A DNA stretch of 64,000 nt from Bacteroidota bacterium (GCA_016707685.1 JADJHE010000008.1:31300-95299), one strand, 5' to 3'. Counted from the first letter of the stretch, positions 4,345 to 39,588 are shown. Notes: generated from the letters alone by a model not told the origin. Translations and numbers: made by a program.

Positions 4345-7300
4345 TTGAAACAACTATTGAAAATAAAAATAAAAAACATTGCAACAATTGTTGCAATGTT
4401 TTTTTGTTTTCAATTAAGCGCTCAACAAATTAAATTTAATAATATTTCTATTCTGCAAGGACTCTCGCAAAGCACTGTCAATTGTATTCTTCAGGATAAG
4501 AGTGGGTTTATGTGGATTGGCACGCAAGATGGCTTGAACAAATATGATGGCTATACATTCAAATATTATAAACACCTGCCATCCCAACAAAATTCTATTT
4601 CCGATAACTTTATCCAAGCATTGTGTGAAGACAAAAATGGAAACATTTGGATAGGAACTTATGGTGGAGGATTGGATAAATTTAATCCCGTATCTGGAAC
4701 ATTCACATCCTATAAAAATGATAGCAGCAACAAGCAATCGCTAAGCAACAATGTGATAATGAGCATTGCTTGTGACAATAAAAACAACTTGTGGGTTGGG
4801 ACACAAAATGGCCTAAACTATTTTGACACGAGAACAGGGATTGTTGAACGTTTTCAGTATTCAAACAACAATAAACAAAGTATTAGTAGTAACAAAATTA
4901 GTTGTGTTTACATCGATAAAAAAGAACGCGTGTGGGTTGGAACAGCAGATGCAGGCTTTAATTTGTTTGATTCGGATAGAAAACTAATTGCTAAATTTTT
5001 AAACAATCCCAACGATTTAAACTCGGTTGCGAAAAATGTAATTAAAACAATTGTTGAAGATCATAATGGTTCAATTTGGGTGGGTACAGGTGGTGCAGGA
5101 GTTGATTGTTTTAATCCAATCAATTTCAGATTTGAACATTTTCAGAAAGATGAAAAAAATAAAAATACTTTGTCTAGTAATGATGTATGGGTTGTATTTG
5201 AAGATGCCGATTACAATATGTGGTTTGGAACCTATGGCGATGGTCTTTGTAAATATAATACCAAAGAAAAAATATTTAGTCAGTATAAAAACAACGCATC
5301 ACTTTCTGGTTCTTTGAGCAACAACATTGTTATGTGTGCTTTTCAGGACTACAGAGGATTATTTTGGGTTGGAACCTTGGGTGGTGGAGTAGACGTGTTT
5401 GATCCCGTTAAGAAAGGTTTTTTACATTTTAAACATCGACAAGAAGATGAAAATGCATTAAGCGAAAACATGGTGATGTGTTTTTATGAAGATAAAAATA
5501 AAGTCATTTGGATTGGTACGTATGGTGGCGGCTTAAATTTATTTGATCCTAAAACGGAAGCATTTAAAAAATATGTTCACGATGACAAAAACAATAAATC
5601 GATTAGTTCAAACATAATTCGAAGTGTTTTTCGTGATTCGAAAAACAATTTGTGGATAGGGACTTACGGTGGCGGCTTAAATTTATTTAATGAGCAAACA
5701 CAAACATTTACAGCCTACAAACACGAGGATAAAAATTCAACAACAATCAGTAGTGATGATGTTTGGTGTATAAAGGAAGATGCAGATGGAAACCTTTGGT
5801 TGGGAACATGGGGTGGCGGCTTAAATAAGTTTAATGTTCAAACAAAAGAGTTTACTAGTTATAAAAACAATGCATCGAATTTAAATTCGATTAGCAATGA
5901 TCGAGTGATTTCATTGTTAGTTGACAAAGAAGAGAACCTTTGGGTTGGCACAAATGGTGGCGGACTAAATTTATACAACAAAGCAACAAATGCGTTTATA
6001 AAATTTAGATACACAGAAACCGATTCTCAATCAATTTCAAGTGATAGAATTCGATGCATTATTCAAGACAAAGAAAACAATATATGGATAGGAACTGATG
6101 GTGGTGGGTTTAATAAGTATGATTTGAAAACAAAAAAATTCACTCGTTACTCTGAAAAACAAGGGCTGTGCAACAATGTAGTATACGGAATTGTAGAAGA
6201 TGAATATGGTAATATTTGGTTAAGCACAAATGGTGGGGTATCAAAATTTAATAGCAAGAAAAATAATTTTCAAAACTTTGATGTTCGAGATGGCTTGCAG
6301 AGCAATGAGTTTAATCAGGGAGCGTATTTAAAAACAAAAGAAGGTAAAATATATTTTGGAGGCGTAAACGGCTTTAATTCCTTTGAACCATCTTCGATTC
6401 GAAAGAATCCAAATCGACCACCCGTTTATATCACTTCTATTAAATTGTTTAATAACGAAATTACGAAGGATACCGCATCGAGTTATATTAAGTCGCTTGA
6501 CTTAAATTATTCCGACAATTTTTTATCCTTTGAATTTGCAGCGCTTGATTATACAGCACCTGAAAAAAATCAGTATGCATGTAAAATGGAAGGCTTTGAT
6601 AAAGATTGGATAAGCCTTGGTGGCAGACGATTTATAAGTTATACCAATCTTGATCCAGGAAAATATATTTTTAGAGTAAAGGGATCGAATAATGATGGTG
6701 TTTGGAATGAGCAAGGTAATTACATTGTTATTTACATTGCTCCTCCATTTTGGAAAACGTACTGGTTTTATGTTAGTGTGATTTTTTTAATGGCGCTGTT
6801 GGTTTACATCTATATTCGTGTACGAACAAAAAAGCTACAACGCGATAAAGAAGAGCTGGAGCGTGAGGTAAAATCACGTACATCGGAAGTTGTTCTCCAA
6901 AAGGATATTATTGAACGCAAGAACAAAGACATTACCGACAGTATTACGTATGCGCAACGAATTCAGCAAGCAATATTACCAACCGAACAGGTTGTAAAAA
7001 AGTTTTTTCCAAATTCGTTTGTATTGTATAAGCCAAAAGATATTGTAAGTGGCGATTTTTATTGGATGGAGCAGGTGGGGTCACAAAATTTTGTTGCGGC
7101 AGTAGATTGTACTGGTCATGGTGTTCCAGGAGCTTTCATGAGTATTGTAGGATACAACTTACTAAATCAAGCGGTGAATGAACGGGGAATTTATGAGCCG
7201 GCAAAAATTTTGGATGAAATGAACAATGGCTTATCAAAACAGTTGCGTCAACAAGGAGACTCTATGACAGTGCGCGATGGAATGGATTTGTCTCTTTGTT

Positions 7301-32193: not shown

Positions 32194-34283
32194 AAAAAAT
32201 AATCGGAATTCTATTTCTTTCAATTTTGACAAACAGTTTTATGTTTGCTCAAAAAAGTAAAGTTGTAGTTGATAGTATACAAAAGCTATTGACTGTTACA
32301 AACGATGATGCCTTGATTGTTGAATACAAAAATCAACTAGCCTATGAATATGTTATTGACGATGCTGTTAAAGCAAAAAAAACTGCAACAGAAGCACTTT
32401 CCTTGGCAACAAAAATTAATAATCAGTTAGGAATTTTAAATGCGAATAACAATCTTGGTCTTGCTTGTTATTATACAAACGACTATGACCAAGCATTAAA
32501 GCATTATTATATTTCTCGAGATATTGCTAAGGAATTAAAAAACAATTCGAAATTGGCCGTTGCTTTAAATAACATAGGTTTAGTATACGATGACAAAGCA
32601 GATTATAATAATGCATTAACGTATTATTTGCAATCGTTAAAGCTGGTGGAAGGCACAGGTGAAAGTAAGTCTCAGCTAGCGAGTACATTAAATAACATTG
32701 CATTAATATATCAAACACAAGGAAAATACGAAGAAGCATTATCGTTTCACAACCGAGCATTAAAAATAAAAAGGGAGATTGGAAACAAGCGAGGTGAAGG
32801 AAGCTCTCTACACAATATCGGTTTAGTATATAAACTAAAAGGAGAGTATGATAAAAGTTTAGAGTTCTATCATCGAGCACTTGAACTTCGTAAGTTAATT
32901 AATGATGAGTCGGGAGTTGGACTAACACTCAATAATATTGGGAGTGTATATGATTCAAGAGGAGAATACGATAAGGCACTTCGTTATTTTGAAGAAGCAT
33001 TGGTTATACGTGAAAAATCGCAAGATAAATACGGATTAGCAATTACCTTGTTTAGTATGGGAAGTGCTTATTGTGAACGTAAAGAGTATAAAAAGGGAAA
33101 CGAATTCATAGAACGAGCAATGAACATTGCAAAGGAGATAGGTGCAAAAGAGCTATTAAAGCATGGCTATGAAACCTATGCACTTATTTATGCAGCCCAA
33201 GGCGATTACAAACATGCATACGAAAATCAGAAAGAATACATTGCTGTTAAGGATTCTATTTTAAATGAAACTACAATTCAGCAGTTGAATGAATTGCAAA
33301 CAAAATATGAAAGCGAAAAGAAGCAAAAAGAATTAGAGTTGGTTACCAAGGAAAGCAAAATTCAAGCGCTCGAGTTGAATAAAAATAAATTATGGATGTA
33401 TGTAATGGTTATTGCAATTCTTTTAGTAATAAGTCTTGCCGTACTTTTATTTAATCGCTATAACCTTAAACAAAAAGCAAACGAATTATTAGCACATCAA
33501 AATGCTGAAATAACACAACAGAAAAAGGAAATTACGGATAGTATTAATTATGCTAAACGTATTCAAGAATCTATTTTACCACCTCAAGATCATTGGAAAA
33601 AATTATTACCGAACAGTTTTATTTTTTATCGCCCGAAAGACATTGTAAGTGGCGATTTTTATTGGATAGAGCAAAAACAAAACATTGTTTGCTTTGCAGC
33701 TGTAGATTGTACTGGACATGGGGTCCCAGGGGCTTTGATGAGTGTAGTAGGCTTTAATTTACTGACACAAGCGGTGAATGAAGTGGGTTTAACAAAACCT
33801 TCTGAAATATTAGAACATTTAGATGCAGGTGTTACAAAAACATTGCGACAAACAGAACATGGTAAAGGAGTAAAAGATGGAATGGATTTATCTTTGTGTT
33901 CGTTTGATACAACAACGAATTTGCTGCAATATGCAGGCGCATTTAATGCGTTGTATTACGTTAGAGAAAATACGTTACACGAAATAAAAGCAGATAAATT
34001 TCCAATTGGAGTAAATTTAGATGGCATTGTAGATAATTATAAAAATCATACGATTCAATTACAAAAAGGAGATTGTGTGTATTTGTTTTCGGATGGATAT
34101 GCTGATCAGTTTGGTGGTTCAAAAGGAAAAAAATTCAAATACAATCAATTGAAAAATCTATTTATAGAGATTGCTAAACAGCCAGTTGATGAGCAAAAAC
34201 AAATTATTGCTGATGCTTTTGATGTGTGGAAAGGTGGTTTAGAGCAAGTGGATGATGTTGTAGTAATAGGATTGAAAATCTAA
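32190..34283 (+). CDS. signal peptide, TPR domain, TM helix, PP2C/SpoIIE phosphatase
   Basis: TPR repeats. TM helix LWMYVMVIAILLVISLAVLLF. Phosphatase motifs DIVSGDFYW, DCTGHGVPGALMS, KDGMD and FSDGYADQFGG. The start overlaps the upstream stop by 4 nt (ATGA). Confidence 0.85.
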   Translation: MKKIIGILFLSILTNSFMFAQKSKVVVDSIQKLLTVTNDDALIVEYKNQLAYEYVIDDAVKAKKTATEALSLATKINNQLGILNANNNLGLACYYTNDYDQALKHYYISRDIAKELKNNSKLAVALNNIGLVYDDKADYNNALTYYLQSLKLVEGTGESKSQLASTLNNIALIYQTQGKYEEALSFHNRALKIKREIGNKRGEGSSLHNIGLVYKLKGEYDKSLEFYHRALELRKLINDESGVGLTLNNIGSVYDSRGEYDKALRYFEEALVIREKSQDKYGLAITLFSMGSAYCERKEYKKGNEFIERAMNIAKEIGAKELLKHGYETYALIYAAQGDYKHAYENQKEYIAVKDSILNETTIQQLNELQTKYESEKKQKELELVTKESKIQALELNKNKLWMYVMVIAILLVISLAVLLFNRYNLKQKANELLAHQNAEITQQKKEITDSINYAKRIQESILPPQDHWKKLLPNSFIFYRPKDIVSGDFYWIEQKQNIVCFAAVDCTGHGVPGALMSVVGFNLLTQAVNEVGLTKPSEILEHLDAGVTKTLRQTEHGKGVKDGMDLSLCSFDTTTNLLQYAGAFNALYYVRENTLHEIKADKFPIGVNLDGIVDNYKNHTIQLQKGDCVYLFSDGYADQFGGSKGKKFKYNQLKNLFIEIAKQPVDEQKQIIADAFDVWKGGLEQVDDVVVIGLKI

Positions 34284-35008
34284 TTGTTGATTTCCAGTTT
34301 TGTACAAGCATCTTCTGAAGCCAATTGTTCTGCACGTTTTTTAGAAAAGTGTTGTGCTATTCCAACAACTTCATTGTCGACAAGTAAGTGTATTAAAAAC
34401 ATTTTATCTGCGGAGTTTGCAGCATCAATAATTATACTGAACACAAATTCCTTTTTTTCTTTTTGTGCCCACTCAATAAATTTACTCTTAAAATCTACTT
34501 CTTTTGTTTCTAATTCATCAATATCCATATGCACATTGATAATTCGTTTTAGAATATATTCTTTCGTTGCATTATACCCTTTGTCGAGATAGATAGCGCC
34601 AATTAATGCTTCGTAAGCATCGCCATTGATTGAGCTTGGTTTGCTGCCACGATCGTTATTCGTTTCAATGAATTTGTTCAAACCAAGCTTTAATGCAATT
34701 TGGTTGTGTTGGTTGCGGCTCACCATTTTAGAACGCATCTTGGTCAAGAAGCCTTCGTCTTTGTAAGGAAATTTTTTGAATAGATATTCTGCTATCACAG
34801 TACCAATAATGGAATCGCCTAAAAATTCTAGGCGTTCATTACTGTCTTTAATTCCTTTTTGTAAATGTTGTGCAGCAGAGCTATGGCGGAAAGCCAATTT
34901 GTACAAATCAATATTGGTTGGATAAAATCCAAGGATATTGCGTAATGATTCGTGCAGTTTTTTTTCAGGAGAAAAATAAACGCGTATTGGCTTTTGAAAA
35001 ACGCTCAA
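34280..35008 (-). CDS. rnc: ribonuclease III
   Basis: The RNase III signature ERLEFLGDSIIG is followed by a C-terminal dsRBD-like region. Confidence 0.9.
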   Translation of the reverse strand: MSVFQKPIRVYFSPEKKLHESLRNILGFYPTNIDLYKLAFRHSSAAQHLQKGIKDSNERLEFLGDSIIGTVIAEYLFKKFPYKDEGFLTKMRSKMVSRNQHNQIALKLGLNKFIETNNDRGSKPSSINGDAYEALIGAIYLDKGYNATKEYILKRIINVHMDIDELETKEVDFKSKFIEWAQKEKKEFVFSIIIDAANSADKMFLIHLLVDNEVVGIAQHFSKKRAEQLASEDACTKLEINN

Positions 35009-35023
35009 TCGGGAAACGATTAG

Positions 35024-36280
35024 TTAGGCTTTGTATTTTTTTACAATAACAGAAGCATTGTGTCCACCAAATCCAAATGTGTTGCTTAATGCAGCACGAA
35101 CTTCGCGTTTTTGAGCTTTGTTAAATGTAAAATTTAATTTGTTGTCCAATGCTGGATCATCTGTAAAGTGATTGATTGTTGGAGGAACAATATCATTCTG
35201 AACAGATAAAACACAAGCAATCGCCTCAATAGCACCAGCAGCACCTAATAAGTGACCAGTCATTGATTTGGTTGAGCTAATGTTTAGTTTGTAAGCATGT
35301 TCACCAAAAACACCAAGGATGGCTTTTGATTCGGCAACATCACCAAGTGGAGTAGATGTTCCGTGAACATTTACATAATCAATATCTTCAGCTTTCATTT
35401 CTGCATCTTCTAATGCAAGGCGCATTACATTACGTGCTCCTAATCCTTCTGGATGAGGCGCTGTAATGTGATTTGCATCGGCAGTCATTCCACCACCTAC
35501 AACTTCAGCATAAATTTTAGCACCACGCTTTAATGCGTGTTCAAGTTCTTCAAGAATTAAAGCACCAGCTCCTTCACCCAATACAAAACCATCACGGTTT
35601 GCATCAAATGGACGAGATGCTGTTTCAGGAGATTCGTTGTTTGTAGACAATGCATGCATTGCGTTGAATCCACCGATACCTGCTTCGCATACTGCAGCTT
35701 CTGATCCACCAGTAACAATAATGTCTGCTTTGCCCAATTTAATGTACATAGCAGCATCAATTAATGCGTTGGTTGATGAAGCACAAGCTGAAACGGTTGT
35801 GAAATTTGGTCCGCGCATACCATACATGATGGAAATGTGTCCAGAACAAATATCAGCAATCATTTTCGGAATAAAGAATGGATTAAAACGAGGAGTTCCA
35901 TCACCTTTTGCATAGCCAAAACATTCGTCTTGGAAGGTTTGTAAACCACCTATTCCTGAACCCCAGATTACTCCAGTTCTATCAGGATCAAAAGCGCCTT
36001 CTTTGTCCAATCCAGCATCTTTTACTGCTTGCATTGCTGAAACTAAACCATATTGAGAAAATGGATCTAGCTTACGAGCTTCTTTTCTGTCTAAGAAGTC
36101 TTCAGGATTAAATCCTTTAACTTCACAGGCAAAACGAGTTTTAAACTTTGAAGCATCGAAACGAGTAATAGGTGCAGCTCCGCTAACACCATTTAATAGG
36201 TTATTCCAATAATCGGTAACCGTATTACCAAGTGGCGTAATTGCGCCTAGGCCTGTAACTACTACTCGTCTCAACTTCAT
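35024..36280 (-). CDS. fabF: beta-ketoacyl-ACP synthase II
   Basis: The KAS active-site context (..SACASS.., HGTSTPLGD, GHLLGAAG) is present. It lies next to acpP. Confidence 0.9.
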   Translation of the reverse strand: MKLRRVVVTGLGAITPLGNTVTDYWNNLLNGVSGAAPITRFDASKFKTRFACEVKGFNPEDFLDRKEARKLDPFSQYGLVSAMQAVKDAGLDKEGAFDPDRTGVIWGSGIGGLQTFQDECFGYAKGDGTPRFNPFFIPKMIADICSGHISIMYGMRGPNFTTVSACASSTNALIDAAMYIKLGKADIIVTGGSEAAVCEAGIGGFNAMHALSTNNESPETASRPFDANRDGFVLGEGAGALILEELEHALKRGAKIYAEVVGGGMTADANHITAPHPEGLGARNVMRLALEDAEMKAEDIDYVNVHGTSTPLGDVAESKAILGVFGEHAYKLNISSTKSMTGHLLGAAGAIEAIACVLSVQNDIVPPTINHFTDDPALDNKLNFTFNKAQKREVRAALSNTFGFGGHNASVIVKKYKA

Positions 36281-36610: not shown

Positions 36611-37282
36611 TTATTCATAAAAAATCGCAATATCATTTATGTTTTTTCTCTGTAAATCAGGAACTTGTGTTTTTTCTAGTGGGTAACCAACTGGTATTAA
36701 AAGAAAAGGACGCTCGTTTTCGGGGCGTTCTAGTAATTTTGTCAAAAAATTCATTGGACTTGGTGTATGGGTTAAAGCAACCAATCCTGCGTTATGGATA
36801 GCTGTTAGCAAAAATCCACTTGCCAAACCAACTGATTCAGCAACATAATAATTGTTCCTTTTATCATTATTCACAAGTTCATAGACCCTTTTGAAGACAA
36901 TAATTAGAGCTGGAGCGATTTCTAAAAAGGGTTTGTTCCAATCGGTTCCTAAAGGAGCCAAATCTTCAAGCCATTCTTTCGACATTCTTCCATTATAACT
37001 TTCTTGCTCTTCTTTTTCAGCAGCAATTCTAATCTCTTTTTTTAGTATAGGATTTGTTACAACACAAAATGTCCACGGTTGTTTGTGTGCACCTGAAGGA
37101 GCTGTTGATGCTGATAGCAGGATGTTTTCAAGGATGTTTTTATCAATCTTTTTTTCTGAAAATTCCCTAACCGTTCTTCTTTTATCAAGCCAATTATAAA
37201 AGTCGGAGCTTCGTTGAAGTGTTTCTTCTGGTCCGTAAGTTTCTTTTGTATAGTTAATGTATGGAAAGGGGTTGTTCATCAT
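36611..37282 (-). CDS. nitroreductase-family flavoprotein resembling iodotyrosine deiodinase (IYD)
   Basis: RRTVREFS...SASTAPSGAHKQPWTF is a nitroreductase FMN-binding signature. The start was set at the internal MMNNPF at 37282. Confidence 0.7.
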   Translation of the reverse strand: MMNNPFPYINYTKETYGPEETLQRSSDFYNWLDKRRTVREFSEKKIDKNILENILLSASTAPSGAHKQPWTFCVVTNPILKKEIRIAAEKEEQESYNGRMSKEWLEDLAPLGTDWNKPFLEIAPALIIVFKRVYELVNNDKRNNYYVAESVGLASGFLLTAIHNAGLVALTHTPSPMNFLTKLLERPENERPFLLIPVGYPLEKTQVPDLQRKNINDIAIFYE

Positions 37283-37318
37283 AAAAATTGCTTTCCGTAA
37301 AAATACTACTTTTGCAGT

Positions 37319-37894
37319 ATGATTTCTAAAAACATAGCCATTTTTGCTTCGGGTGAAGGAACCAATGCACAGCGTATCATCGACTATTTTAAAAACTCCG
37401 AAAAGATACATGTAGCACTGGTAGTTTCGAATAAAGAAACAGCCAATGTTTTAAATCGTGCAAAAGCAGCTTCCATCGAGACCTACTTGTTAAGCAAGGC
37501 CGATTTTGTGGAGAATGATACGACTATTCGTTTTTTAAAATCGAAAAATATCGATTTAATTGTGCTAGCTGGCTTTTTATGGATGATTCCTGAAAATTTG
37601 GTGAAAGCATTTCCCAATAAAATAATTAACATTCATCCTGCATTATTGCCCAAATTTGGCGGTAAAGGGATGTATGGCATGAATGTACATAATGCGGTAA
37701 TTCAGGCGAAGGAACAACAAAGTGGAATTTCTATTCATTTTGTGAACGAACATTACGATGAAGGAGAAATCATTTCGCAACATACATGTACTGTTTCTGA
37801 AAATGATACGCCCGAAAGCTTGGCAATAAAAATTCATGAATTGGAGTACGAATTTTTCCCAAAAGCAATTGAAAAAGTGCTTTCAACAAATTGA
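37319..37894 (+). CDS. purN: phosphoribosylglycinamide formyltransferase
   Basis: AIFASGEGTN, NIHPALLPKFGG and the Formyl_trans_N fold in 191 aa. Confidence 0.85.
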   Translation: MISKNIAIFASGEGTNAQRIIDYFKNSEKIHVALVVSNKETANVLNRAKAASIETYLLSKADFVENDTTIRFLKSKNIDLIVLAGFLWMIPENLVKAFPNKIINIHPALLPKFGGKGMYGMNVHNAVIQAKEQQSGISIHFVNEHYDEGEIISQHTCTVSENDTPESLAIKIHELEYEFFPKAIEKVLSTN

Positions 37895-37959
37895 TTCAAC
37901 TAAATAGTTGATATTCGTATATTCTAAATTAACTCGTGTAAAATTAAAAAAGCCTAAAA

Positions 37960-38526
37960 ATGGAATTTAACTTTAAAGAAATAGCCACCATCAGCATGAT
38001 TTTATTTGCGGTGATTGATGTAGTAGGTTCCTTACCTGTTTTGCTTGATCTACAACAAAAAGTAGGAAAAATTCAATCCGAAAAAGCAACCTTGGTTTCG
38101 GGTGTTATTATGATTGCTTTTATGTTTGTAGGCGAACAAATTTTAAGTTTAATTGGCATTGATGTTAGTTCGTTTGCCATTGCAGGTTCGTTCATCATTT
38201 TCTTTTTAGCATTGGAAATGATTTTAGGCGTTAAGTTTTACAAAGAAGAAACTGCAGCTACCGCATCGGTGGTTCCTATTGCTTTTCCTTTGATTGCTGG
38301 AACGGGAACATTAACAACCTTACTTTCCTTACGCGCAGAGTATCACCTCGAAAATTTAATTGTAGCAATCCTTATTAATTTAGTTTTTGTATACATCGTT
38401 TTGCGAAACACTTATCGCTTGGAACATATTTTAGGTCCAGGTGGAATTAATATTTTGAGAAAAGTATTTGGTGTAATTCTTTTAGCAATTGCAGTAAAAT
38501 TGTTTAGAACACACGCGGGATTGTAA
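37960..38526 (+). CDS. MarC family (UPF0056) integral membrane protein
   Basis: Six-TM profile. The N-terminus ISMILFAVIDVVGSLPV is typical of MarC. Confidence 0.75.
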   Translation: MEFNFKEIATISMILFAVIDVVGSLPVLLDLQQKVGKIQSEKATLVSGVIMIAFMFVGEQILSLIGIDVSSFAIAGSFIIFFLALEMILGVKFYKEETAATASVVPIAFPLIAGTGTLTTLLSLRAEYHLENLIVAILINLVFVYIVLRNTYRLEHILGPGGINILRKVFGVILLAIAVKLFRTHAGL

Positions 38527-38530
38527 AATT

Positions 38531-38607
38531 AGACATAAGAAGATAGACAATTTAAAGTAGTAGACAAAGGACAAGATAAAAAGTAGACAAATAAACAGTG
38601 GACAAGA
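38531..38607 (+). repeat. array of TAGACAA/GGACAAG heptamer repeats upstream of the four-helix-bundle gene
   Basis: agacata, tagacaa three times, ggacaag twice within 77 bp. Confidence 0.7.
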
Positions 38608-39014
38608 AAATTGATATTGATAAAAAAACTGAAAAAGCAAAAACCGCTTTTAAGTTTAAGGATCTTACTGTTTATAAAAAAGCATTTTCTCTCGCAATGG
38701 AGATTTTTCATGTTTCAAAGCATTTTCCTGAAAATGAGAAATATGGTCTGACTAGCCAGATAAGACGCTCATCCCGTTCAGTTTGTTCTTCAATAGGTGA
38801 AGGTTATCGAAAAAGAAGATATGAGGCACATTTTATCAGCAAAACAAGTGATGCGGATATGGAAAATAGTGAAACAAGTGTTTGGATTGATTTTGCTTTT
38901 GAATGTGGTTATATTGATGAGGACTCAAAAGAAAAGTTAAACGATAAAGCAGCTGAAATAGGGAGGTTACTAAATCACATGATTGAAAATCCAGAAAAGT
39001 ATAATAGAAATTAA
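38598..39014 (+). CDS. four-helix-bundle protein of the '23S rRNA-intervening-sequence protein' family
   Basis: FKDLTVYKKAFSLAMEIF...IGEGYRKR signature. It has a GTG start. Inverted GTAGACAA arrays flank it. Confidence 0.75.
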   Translation: MDKKIDIDKKTEKAKTAFKFKDLTVYKKAFSLAMEIFHVSKHFPENEKYGLTSQIRRSSRSVCSSIGEGYRKRRYEAHFISKTSDADMENSETSVWIDFAFECGYIDEDSKEKLNDKAAEIGRLLNHMIENPEKYNRN

Positions 39015-39058
39015 TTGCACCAATTGTGAAGTTTAAAACAATTGCAAATTGATTTTAT

Positions 39059-39094
39059 TTTGTCTACTGTCTATTTTTTTCAAATTGTCTACTT
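39059..39094 (+). repeat. inverted copies (TTGTCTAC) of the upstream repeat, downstream of the four-helix-bundle gene
   Basis: ttgtctactgtctat and ttgtctactt are the reverse complement of gtagacaa/atagaca. Confidence 0.7.
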
Positions 39095-39111
39095 ATAATT
39101 AAGCATAAAAC

Positions 39112-39588
39112 ATGATAAAAATATACACTGATGGTGCATCAAGAGGAAACCCGGGTCCAGGCGGATTTGGTGTGGTAATGATTTATGGTGCATTGCGGAA
39201 AGAAATTTCAGAAGGTTTTCGATACACCACCAATAACCGTATGGAGTTATTGAGTGTGATTGTTGCACTTGAAAGTTTAAAAAAAGAAGGAACAACCGTT
39301 ACCATTTATTCCGATTCAAAATATGTGGTAGATTCTGTTGAGCAAAAGTGGGTGTTCGGTTGGGAGAAAAAATATTTTAAGGATAAAAAGAACGAAGATT
39401 TGTGGAAACGGTTTTTACGTATTTACCGAAAACACAATGTAAAATTTGTTTGGGTAAAAGGGCATGCATCTAATAAAGAAAACAACCGTTGCGATGAATT
39501 AGCCGTTGCCGCAGCATTGGGTGGTCATTTAAAAATTGATCATGGCTACGAAGAAGAAAACAAAAAGGCAGACTCTAAACTTTTATAA
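39112..39588 (+). CDS. rnhA: ribonuclease HI
   Basis: TDGASRGNPGPGG, NNRMEL, YSDSKYV and KGHA..NNRCDELA contain the RNase H catalytic DEDD residues. Confidence 0.9.
   Translation: MIKIYTDGASRGNPGPGGFGVVMIYGALRKEISEGFRYTTNNRMELLSVIVALESLKKEGTTVTIYSDSKYVVDSVEQKWVFGWEKKYFKDKKNEDLWKRFLRIYRKHNVKFVWVKGHASNKENNRCDELAVAAALGGHLKIDHGYEEENKKADSKLL

Follow-up and report, generated by a model that had tools for sequence, protein, structure and literature searches.

A four-helix-bundle gene framed by inverted heptamer arrays occupies the marC-rnhA junction of a Bacteroidota bacterium and shares the anatomy of 23S rRNA intervening sequences

The genes marC and rnhA of a Bacteroidota bacterium (GCA_016707685.1, JADJHE010000008.1:31300-95299) are separated by a block of 585 bp that is an insertion relative to syntenic relatives. 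Coordinates are counted from the first letter of the 64,000-nt stretch analyzed, referred to here as the window, in which the block runs from the marC stop codon to the rnhA start codon (38527-39111, + strand). It holds a 138-aa gene of the four-helix-bundle (4HB) family PF05635, bracketed by two inverted arrays of a short repeat, and this architecture of gene plus inverted heptamers surrounds the family in many phyla. The reading that we favor, with moderate confidence, is that of a selfish cassette of the intervening sequence (IVS) type, in which a promoterless 4HB gene with inverted heptamer arrays would have inserted in sense orientation into a purN-marC-rnhA operon, to be transcribed by read-through and processed after pairing of its arms. 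We favor it because the insert shares the anatomy of the intervening sequences of 23S rRNA, with an open reading frame (ORF) in sense orientation, a stem and heptamers.

Results

Inverted heptamer arrays around the 4HB gene

The arrays were delimited by sequence scan and are most easily followed through the hexamer TAGACA. Upstream of the 4HB ORF this hexamer starts on the + strand at 38530, 38544, 38561 and 38584, the last two copies reading as GTAGACAA, and together with GGACAAG units at 38569 and 38600 it makes up a 5' array that spans 38527-38607. The 3' array (39057-39094, - strand) is the reverse complement of these units, with full copies of TTGTCTAC at 39060-39067 and 39085-39092 and a partial copy, TGTCTAT, at 39068-39074; on the - strand the hexamer starts at 39061, 39068 and 39086. 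Polarity is strict, with four hexamers on the + strand before the ORF and three on the - strand after it, all of them pointing inward. A prior examination of this DNA from its sequence alone (hereafter the sequence-only reading) had described inverted arrays of an octamer around the ORF, with five to six copies upstream and three downstream. The inverted layout and the upstream count stand, whereas the downstream array consists of two exact copies and a partial one, not three exact ones, and the supposed octamer is really a degenerate heptamer, (A/G)TAGACA. In the window its units are degenerate and spaced by 7-23 nt; in relatives they are contiguous with a strict period of 7, as in the four ATAGACA copies of L015 (loci and contigs used for comparison are designated by L and a number). 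The last unit of the 5' array overlaps the GTG start codon of the 4HB gene, and the 3' array lies 20 nt 5' of the rnhA start codon. One further GTAGACAA is found at 35643, inside fabF, and has the look of a chance occurrence.

Clustering by chance of an A/T-rich word in a genome of 34% G+C is an explanation to which we grant practically no probability. It can appeal to the window-wide hexamer count, which at 19 against 22.6 expected is in no overall excess. The sequence-only reading had named such an unremarkable frequency, combined with a lack of other paired occurrences, as the outcome that would speak against it; the frequency is indeed not raised, but paired occurrences abound, 70 of 79 loci around homologues being paired. 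Moreover, 7 of the 19 TAGACA/TGTCTA hexamers of the 64,000-nt window fall within 562 bp, and a cluster of seven in 600 bp was reached in none of 2000 first-order Markov simulations of the window, in which the maximum was five; this refutes chance. The strict polarity of the arrays, their persistence across lineages with saturated synonymous sites and the repetition of the layout around homologues argue in the same direction, as do the shifted-position controls described below.

The encoded protein and its conservation

The 4HB gene (38598-39014, + strand) encodes a protein that scores 112.1 bits against PF05635 (cut-off 33.8) and 100.2 bits against TIGR02436 (cut-off 24), in agreement with the earlier recognition of its 138-aa ORF as a four-helix-bundle protein. 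The GTG at 38598 is its sole canonical start, no in-frame ATG being present before the conserved domain, and its relatives by sequence similarity in the PDB, 2RLD (2e-9) and 2GSC (6e-8), are both solved, uncharacterized proteins. Among copies flanked by TAGACA-type arrays the ratio of nonsynonymous to synonymous divergence (dN/dS) ranges from 0.03 to 0.10 with saturated dS, which points to strong purifying selection. Two strains, whose contigs were retrieved by exact protein identity, show no nonsynonymous change against a dS of 0.11. The noncoding arrays, in turn, retain the unit on both sides in close strains and in homologues of 80-84% identity, despite saturated dS. Because the unit is kept on both sides across such synonymous distances, the arrays are either constrained or actively homogenized. 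The 64-kb window holds no second 4HB gene, the PADLOC defense models yielded no match, and the phage collection contains no homologue of the 4HB protein, so that there is no sign of a phage vector.

Insertion into the marC-rnhA junction

The genes that flank the insert were recognized by profile matches and by synteny with sites lacking it, and consist of a marC-family transporter gene upstream (37960-38526, + strand; PF01914) and of rnhA, for RNase HI, downstream (39112-39588, + strand; PF00075 and NF001236). On the + strand the order is purN, marC, 4HB and rnhA, and the next gene, for a short-chain dehydrogenase (sdr), is convergent with them. A metagenome scan with the RNase HI of the window returned 80 loci, 23 of which have marC upstream of rnhA, mostly directly adjacent, and in none of these 23 does a 4HB gene sit at the junction. 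The sequence-only reading had proposed a comparison with empty sites in relatives, and such sites exist. In the closest of them, L091, L092 and L093, the purN-marC-rnhA-sdr synteny is preserved at 84-89% identity for marC and 83-89% for rnhA, and rnhA starts 1 nt after marC, overlaps it by 4 nt (ATGA) or starts 32 nt after it, with no 4HB gene between them. The cassette is present at precisely the marC-rnhA junction in L010 and L015, whose divergence is similar. At equal distance of the hosts, filled sites are thus found among empty ones, which implies repeated gain or clean loss of the cassette. No target-site duplication is visible when the junctions are compared with the empty sites. The notion of a small mobile cassette, also put forward in the sequence-only reading, is thus supported by the insertion relative to empty sites and by the recurrence of the arrays elsewhere. 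The other suggestion of that reading, binding sites for a regulator, is neither favored nor disfavored by these data, and pairing of the arms in a transcript, as in rRNA intervening sequences, was not among its proposals.

The arrangement of transcription signals is consistent with co-transcription of purN, marC, the 4HB gene and rnhA. A pattern scan yielded TACTTTTG (37307-37314, + strand) as a candidate promoter of this unit; identified purely as a consensus match, it is the sole exact instance of the Bacteroidetes-type -7 box TAnnTTTG in 37200-39200 and is located just before purN. Scans for sigma-70-type and Bacteroidetes-type promoters, which likewise score consensus matches alone, gave no convincing signal inside the insert, and a terminator scan detected no terminator-like hairpin between marC, 4HB and rnhA.

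Other lineages carry co-directional inserts of a different kind at the marC-rnhA junction (L107 1261-2034, L098 398-2435, L134 1908-2440 and L117 1680-2498). Judged from their translations, these encode a multi-pass membrane protein of 256-257 aa, joined in L098 by a protein of 417 aa, or else a 76-aa and 100-aa pair resembling a toxin-antitoxin module or a 272-aa ion-channel-like protein. Gene insertion in general seems to be tolerated at this junction. Two contigs close to the window show peculiarities of their own. L004, a 2.2-kb metagenome contig, bears an identical 4HB gene, 3' array and rnhA, and its positions 1-174, which correspond to the region upstream of 38589 in the window, hold unrelated sequence upstream of the last heptamer, without marC and without the 5' array; this contig is either an assembly chimera formed at the repeat or a rearranged allele. 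In L001, a close strain with neighboring proteins 98-99% identical to those of the window, an extra 211-aa ORF (5357-5992) lies between rnhA and the dehydrogenase gene. It has no Pfam match and is absent from the window, and the rnhA of this strain is called six residues shorter.

The same architecture across the gene family

More than 7,900 significant family matches were scored with the 4HB protein of the window as single query. The homologue scan, restricted to one genome per species, comprised the 80 loci with the best matches to this query (L010-L089), most of them from metagenome-assembled genomes (among these one of Croceimicrobium, L062), and drew on Bacteroidota, Ignavibacteriota, Cloacimonadota, Calditrichaceae, Balneolaceae and one Thermodesulfobacteriota single-cell genome. 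The closest homologues outside the species of the window, P0010 and P0003 (79-84% identity), reside between a nucleotidyltransferase gene and radA, and the homologues in this radA context (L008/L012, L009 and L011) show TAGACA or TAAACA units upstream and TGTCTA or TGTTTA units downstream. Inspection of the flanks reveals that in nearly all loci units of the form A(G/A)TNNNC, typically AGTAGGC, AGTTGGC, AGTCGGC, AATTGAC or AGTAGAC, precede the gene and that a reverse-complement array follows it. A generic segment of two A[GA]TNNNC units is present on both flanks in 70 of 79 loci, each flank being chosen independently. A strict test, by which one exact 6-mer had to occur two or more times upstream and its complement two or more times downstream, was passed by 49 of 79 loci, against 7 of 284 shifted control positions and 14 of 79 loci in a direct-orientation control. 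The orientation of the chosen units is equally marked, with 252 upstream units on the + strand and 207 downstream units in reverse complement, as opposed to 12 and 11, respectively, in the wrong orientation. The expectation that comparable repeat clusters would flank other 4HB genes has therefore been borne out, both in the radA context and in the 70 loci with arrays on both sides.

The geometry of the cassettes is also regular. Heptamer-periodic arrays in these loci are found within 250 nt of the 4HB gene in 57 of 79 detections, and the cassette is co-directional with both neighbors, themselves co-directional, in 70 of the 78 loci for which both could be called, the exceptions involving mostly short, doubtful ORFs. 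Between the upstream stop codon and the beginning of the 5' array the median distance is 4 nt, and the array often includes the stop codon itself; a median of 38 nt separates the end of the 3' array from the start codon that follows, and the cassettes have a median span of 541 bp. Six copies on cyanobacterial plasmids were inspected as well (L170-L175; Nostoc, Leptolyngbya, Brasilonema and Oscillatoria). Five of them follow the inverted plan, with G-rich units of 7-8 nt (GCAGGGGA, GCAGAGGA) leading up to the ATG and their C-rich complement past the stop codon; the Oscillatoria copy, L173, is the exception, being flanked by long, directly oriented G-rich arrays and having its neighbors on the opposite strand. 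A design common to several phyla therefore looks like that of a mobile 'intervening sequence' that lives in mRNA operons, and not in rRNA.

Covariation of the arms and exchange of cassettes

From locus to locus the heptamer has different variable triplets, but the two arms of one locus agree. Over six variable positions the arms show 4.04 matches, as compared with 2.62 when partners are permuted, the observed number not being reached in any of 5000 permutations; cognate arm duplexes are likewise more stable than noncognate ones (p=1e-8). In some loci irregular sequence is perfectly mirrored too, as in L012, with a 29-bp helix that includes a spacer, and in L067, with 31 mirrored nucleotides. 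Protein clades coincide with heptamer types, and protein identity tracks the heptamer type and not the host or the genomic site. Proteins of the TAGGC type from Cyclobacteriaceae and Ignavibacteria are 73.7% identical, whereas within the Cyclobacteriaceae proteins of the TAGGC and TTGAC types are 69.9% identical at the same fadB-like/thiolase junction, and within the Ignavibacteria those of the TAGGC and TCNNC types are 67.5% identical at the same ferredoxin/reductase junction.

Several loci preserve what appear to be traces of turnover. The 5' arrays of L038 and L076 are chimeric, with TAGGC units followed by TTGAC units. In L009 (3390-3450) a second 5'-type array (CAGACAATGGGCAATAGACAGTAGACAAG) directly follows the 4HB stop codon; next come a near-copy of the final 21 nt of the ORF and the 3' array, an arrangement suggestive of what is left of a second, tandemly stacked cassette. 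Back-to-back arrays without a gene, 5'-type and then 3'-type, occur right after a stop codon in L037 (4026-4088) and L059 (3953-4040) and, by their sequence, resemble cassettes without their ORF; the arms of L037, with three AGTTGGC and three TTAACTG units, are complementary in sense RNA through G-U pairs alone. Taken together, the chimeras, the L009 remnant and the gene-less pairs may be seen as signs of gain, replacement and degradation at the same junctions. Extra full or partial 4HB genes are also present at neighboring fadB-like/thiolase operon junctions of Cyclobacteriaceae (L045 114-476, L036 2503-2718 and L038 4725-4874), which shows that colonization can extend to several junctions of a single operon.

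Discussion

The reading of the insert as an IVS-type cassette draws on the predicted secondary structure of its transcript. In the minimum free energy fold, positions 38544-38577 pair with 39057-39091 (both on the + strand) to form a predicted closing stem of 31 bp, made up of four helices (10, 4, 8 and 9 bp) with pair probabilities mostly at or above 0.9 and an overall z-score of -2.8. Weaker predicted pairs continue outward, on the 5' side as far as the marC stop codon and on the 3' side as close as 7 nt to the rnhA start codon. An equivalent closing stem is predicted in all TAGACA-type relatives, and in L012 it takes the form of a perfect 29-bp helix. Read-through transcription of the host operon would include the cassette, whose two arrays would then pair in the transcript as a stem of some 31 bp, looping out the 4HB gene and bringing the marC stop and the rnhA start close together. 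Such a stem is a likely substrate for host RNase III, which might cut it as has been demonstrated by experiment for rRNA intervening sequences with this ORF, and cleavage would free the 4HB mRNA while the flanking genes stay expressed. The arrays would thus mark the ends of a unit that may be gained, lost and exchanged between genomes through a mechanism not encoded in the insert. By gene annotation, rnc, the gene for RNase III, adjoins fabF and acpP 3.5 kb upstream of the cassette (34280-35008, - strand), a proximity that is probably coincidental.

The anatomy to which this reading appeals is best documented in Coxiella burnetii, where the S23p ORF of the 23S IVS has the same sense as the rRNA precursor. 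A terminal stem of 28 bp, cut by RNase III, encloses this ORF, and two to three tandem heptamers (GACAGAT), in a copy number that varies between strains, stand just before it; the IVS is taken to be selfish and possibly mobile (PMC4990558). The insert shares with the 23S rRNA intervening sequences of Leptospira, C. burnetii and others a PF05635 ORF in sense orientation within the host transcript, an inverted-repeat stem around it (28 bp in Coxiella, a predicted 31 bp here) and heptamers upstream of it (two to three GACAGAT in Coxiella, five to six degenerate units at 38530-38606 here). It differs in its host site, which is a marC/rnhA mRNA junction and not helix 25 or 45 of 23S rRNA, in its arms, which are degenerate heptamer arrays and not a unique stem, and in its ORF, which is under strong purifying selection, whereas that of Coxiella is decaying and apparently untranslated. 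RNase III excision is known for the rRNA elements, while the locus considered here offers a host rnc gene and a predicted stem. A 23S IVS in the strict sense can be dismissed, given that the flanks are marC and rnhA and that the window contains no rRNA; against Rfam, the locus gave no match even at E<=10, and no part of the window reached a gathering score.

A number of observations weigh against an RNA-level cassette. Transcription, pairing and cleavage are predictions made from sequence, and the neighboring genes and strands of the surveyed loci were called with a simple ORF heuristic. Pairing in RNA would favor G-U over A-C mismatches, yet the best ungapped alignments of the arms contain 116 G-U-compatible and 114 A-C mismatches and give no clear support for a helix in sense RNA. 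An advantage of sense over antisense duplexes, significant at first, vanished after controlling for composition (p=0.14). When arm segments are chosen independently, G-U (37) does exceed A-C (18), but G-A (31) is as common as G-U, which points to a C-poor sense strand and not to selection for wobble pairs. Many loci match only at the CAGT core and at part of the triplet, so that their stems are interrupted. The identity of the arms could equally be upheld in the DNA, where quasi-palindromes permit template switching, or through a protein that reads both arms. Finally, cleavage of a marC-rnhA mRNA would proceed without the ribosome scaffold that, in the case of rRNA, holds the pieces together.

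A protein that reads both arms is the essence of what we deem a possible, if on balance unlikely, alternative, namely that the arrays are specific binding sites, on double-stranded DNA or on RNA, of the encoded, putatively pentameric 4HB protein, serving autoregulation or marking the ends of the element. Each cassette lineage would then read its own heptamer, with arm complementarity as a by-product, and this explanation is compatible with the IVS-type cassette. It accounts for a protein identity that follows heptamer type and not host or site (73.7% versus 69.9%), although co-inheritance by itself can explain the link between clade and heptamer, and for a constant CAGT core every 7 nt even where triplets mismatch, as well as for the overlap of the last unit with the start codon in the window. 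Tight recognition of the triplet is at odds with the mixture of triplets often seen within single arrays (L022, L076 and L086), and binding sites do not require the perfect mirroring of irregular sequence, spacers included, of L012 (29 bp) and L067 (31 nt). Nucleic acid binding is a property of Avd, the homologue found in diversity-generating retroelements (DGRs) (10.1101/2023.10.23.563531), and the authors who described heptamer repeats in cyanobacteria postulate an as yet unnamed binding protein (10.1101/2022.06.06.494920), whereas binding by stand-alone members of the family is putative.

We think it distinctly less probable that the arrays act at the DNA level as transposon-like ends, either as terminal inverted repeats composed of sub-terminal repeats or as hairpin sites in single-stranded DNA, for a recombinase encoded elsewhere, with RNA pairing incidental and the 4HB gene as cargo or accessory factor. 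The gain/loss polymorphism at one site, the occurrence of different cassette lineages at the same site, the chimeric 5' arrays of L038 and L076 and the tandem remnant in L009 are all in keeping with such ends, the gene-less pairs of L037 and L059 are reminiscent of derivatives like miniature inverted-repeat transposable elements (MITEs), and the missing wobble signature of RNA selection fits as well. Against this, there is no transposase or integrase in the insert or adjoining it, no target-site duplication is visible, the 64-kb window has one copy alone, and near-universal sense orientation in operons would not be expected of an element with symmetric ends unless read-through expression mattered. 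Still less credible, and in our view quite improbable, is that these are generic heptamer tandem repeats that tune the translation or transcription of rnhA and the 4HB gene without any special tie to a cassette. Heptamer direct repeats beside start codons have been documented in Beggiatoaceae, Cyanobacteria and some Bacteroidetes (PMC4679880; 10.1101/2022.06.06.494920), the 3' array does lie 20 nt before the rnhA start codon, and solo arrays located elsewhere make up 22 of the 79 detected in some loci. Nevertheless, the other 57 are at most 250 nt away from a 4HB gene, and the arrays form inverted pairs with covarying triplets, are absent from empty marC-rnhA junctions and travel with the 4HB gene to other contexts.

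Comparison with known systems bears on the IVS-type cassette from several sides. The heptamer tandem repeats of Cyanobacteria (short tandemly repeated repetitive sequences, STRR), Beggiatoaceae (TAACTGA) and some Bacteroidetes resemble the arrays in their 7-base units, which here are contiguous in relatives but spaced by 7-23 nt in the window, and in their intergenic position abutting start or stop codons. They differ in having been described as solo direct arrays with no associated gene or assigned function, whereas the arrays reported here are inverted pairs with covarying triplets around one gene family. STRR1 (CCCCAGT) and STRR3 (CAACAGT) share a CAGT core. The distribution of heptamer repeats is patchy over Cyanobacteria and Bacteroidetes, which suggests horizontal spread (PMC4679880; 10.1101/2022.06.06.494920).

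Avd, for its part, forms a basic pentamer with affinity for the RNA stem-loops next to the template repeat, the template RNA being closed by a distal duplex (10.1101/2023.10.23.563531), and this makes RNA binding by a stand-alone 4HB protein a reasonable lead. By analogy, the putative 4HB pentamer probably binds the structured RNA of the arms. The two proteins belong to a homologous four-helix-bundle fold family and are linked by weak matches (PHROG 'Avd protein of DGR', 3e-10; PF22296, 33.3 bits), and they part ways in their neighborhoods, since here purN, marC, rnhA and a short-chain dehydrogenase gene take the place of reverse transcriptase, template repeat and variable repeat. Identity with Avd was rejected on the grounds that the scores of Avd models fall below their curated cut-offs (NF033474, 27 bits versus 80; PF22296, 33.3 versus 40) and that no reverse transcriptase is nearby; among the called genes with Pfam matches on up to 10 kb of related contigs none has an RVT domain.

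Integron cassettes with their attC sites and the repetitive extragenic palindromic (REP) elements with their associated tyrosine transposases (RAYT) are also small, promoterless single-ORF units that are co-directional with an upstream promoter, bear imperfect, hairpin-capable inverted repeats and can be stacked, as in the L009 remnant and at the L036, L038 and L045 junctions. Like RAYT genes, the 4HB ORF has inverted copies of a short repeat on its two flanks, and the repeat is also found in places where the gene is missing. Unlike these systems, the 4HB cassettes lack an integrase, attI or HUH transposase and sit at many unrelated operon junctions, they carry heptamer repeats on either side, and no catalytic motif is known in the encoded protein. 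An integron gene cassette was discarded, there being no integrase among the neighboring genes and repeats on both sides of the ORF in lieu of one 3' attC. So was an insertion sequence or MITE, the sole substantial ORF being 4HB and no target duplication being apparent against the empty sites.

Conclusions

The literature searched, which left most papers in subscription journals outside, yielded no link between the PF05635 family outside rRNA and flanking heptamer arrays, and within the incomplete coverage of the searchable literature no description of IVS-like cassettes in mRNA operons was found. We suggest, as a tentative and admittedly doubtful proposition, that the 4HB proteins of PF05635 may be the missing partners of heptamer tandem repeats, with a pentamer that would read the RNA or DNA of its own arrays, and that gene and arrays may form an autonomous module able to settle in operon junctions and rRNA helices of at least five phyla, moving by way of a hairpin or RNA intermediate and not through a transposase. 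Cultivable carriers, such as Ignavibacterium album, to which the metagenome-assembled genome of L069 belongs, and Nostoc punctiforme PCC 73102 (plasmid pNPUN02, L174), make co-transcription, RNase III ends and cognate binding directly testable. For annotation, the cassette explains the presence of 4HB genes as lone inserts inside conserved operons and perhaps also accounts for their flanks being flagged by repeat finders. More generally, if the proposition is true, two oddities would be tied together, a large and conserved family of small proteins and the heptamer repeats that have been noticed for decades in cyanobacteria and other bacteria, and the 'intervening sequence' of 23S rRNA would be but one habitat of a broader class of elements that reside in operon junctions without inactivating them.

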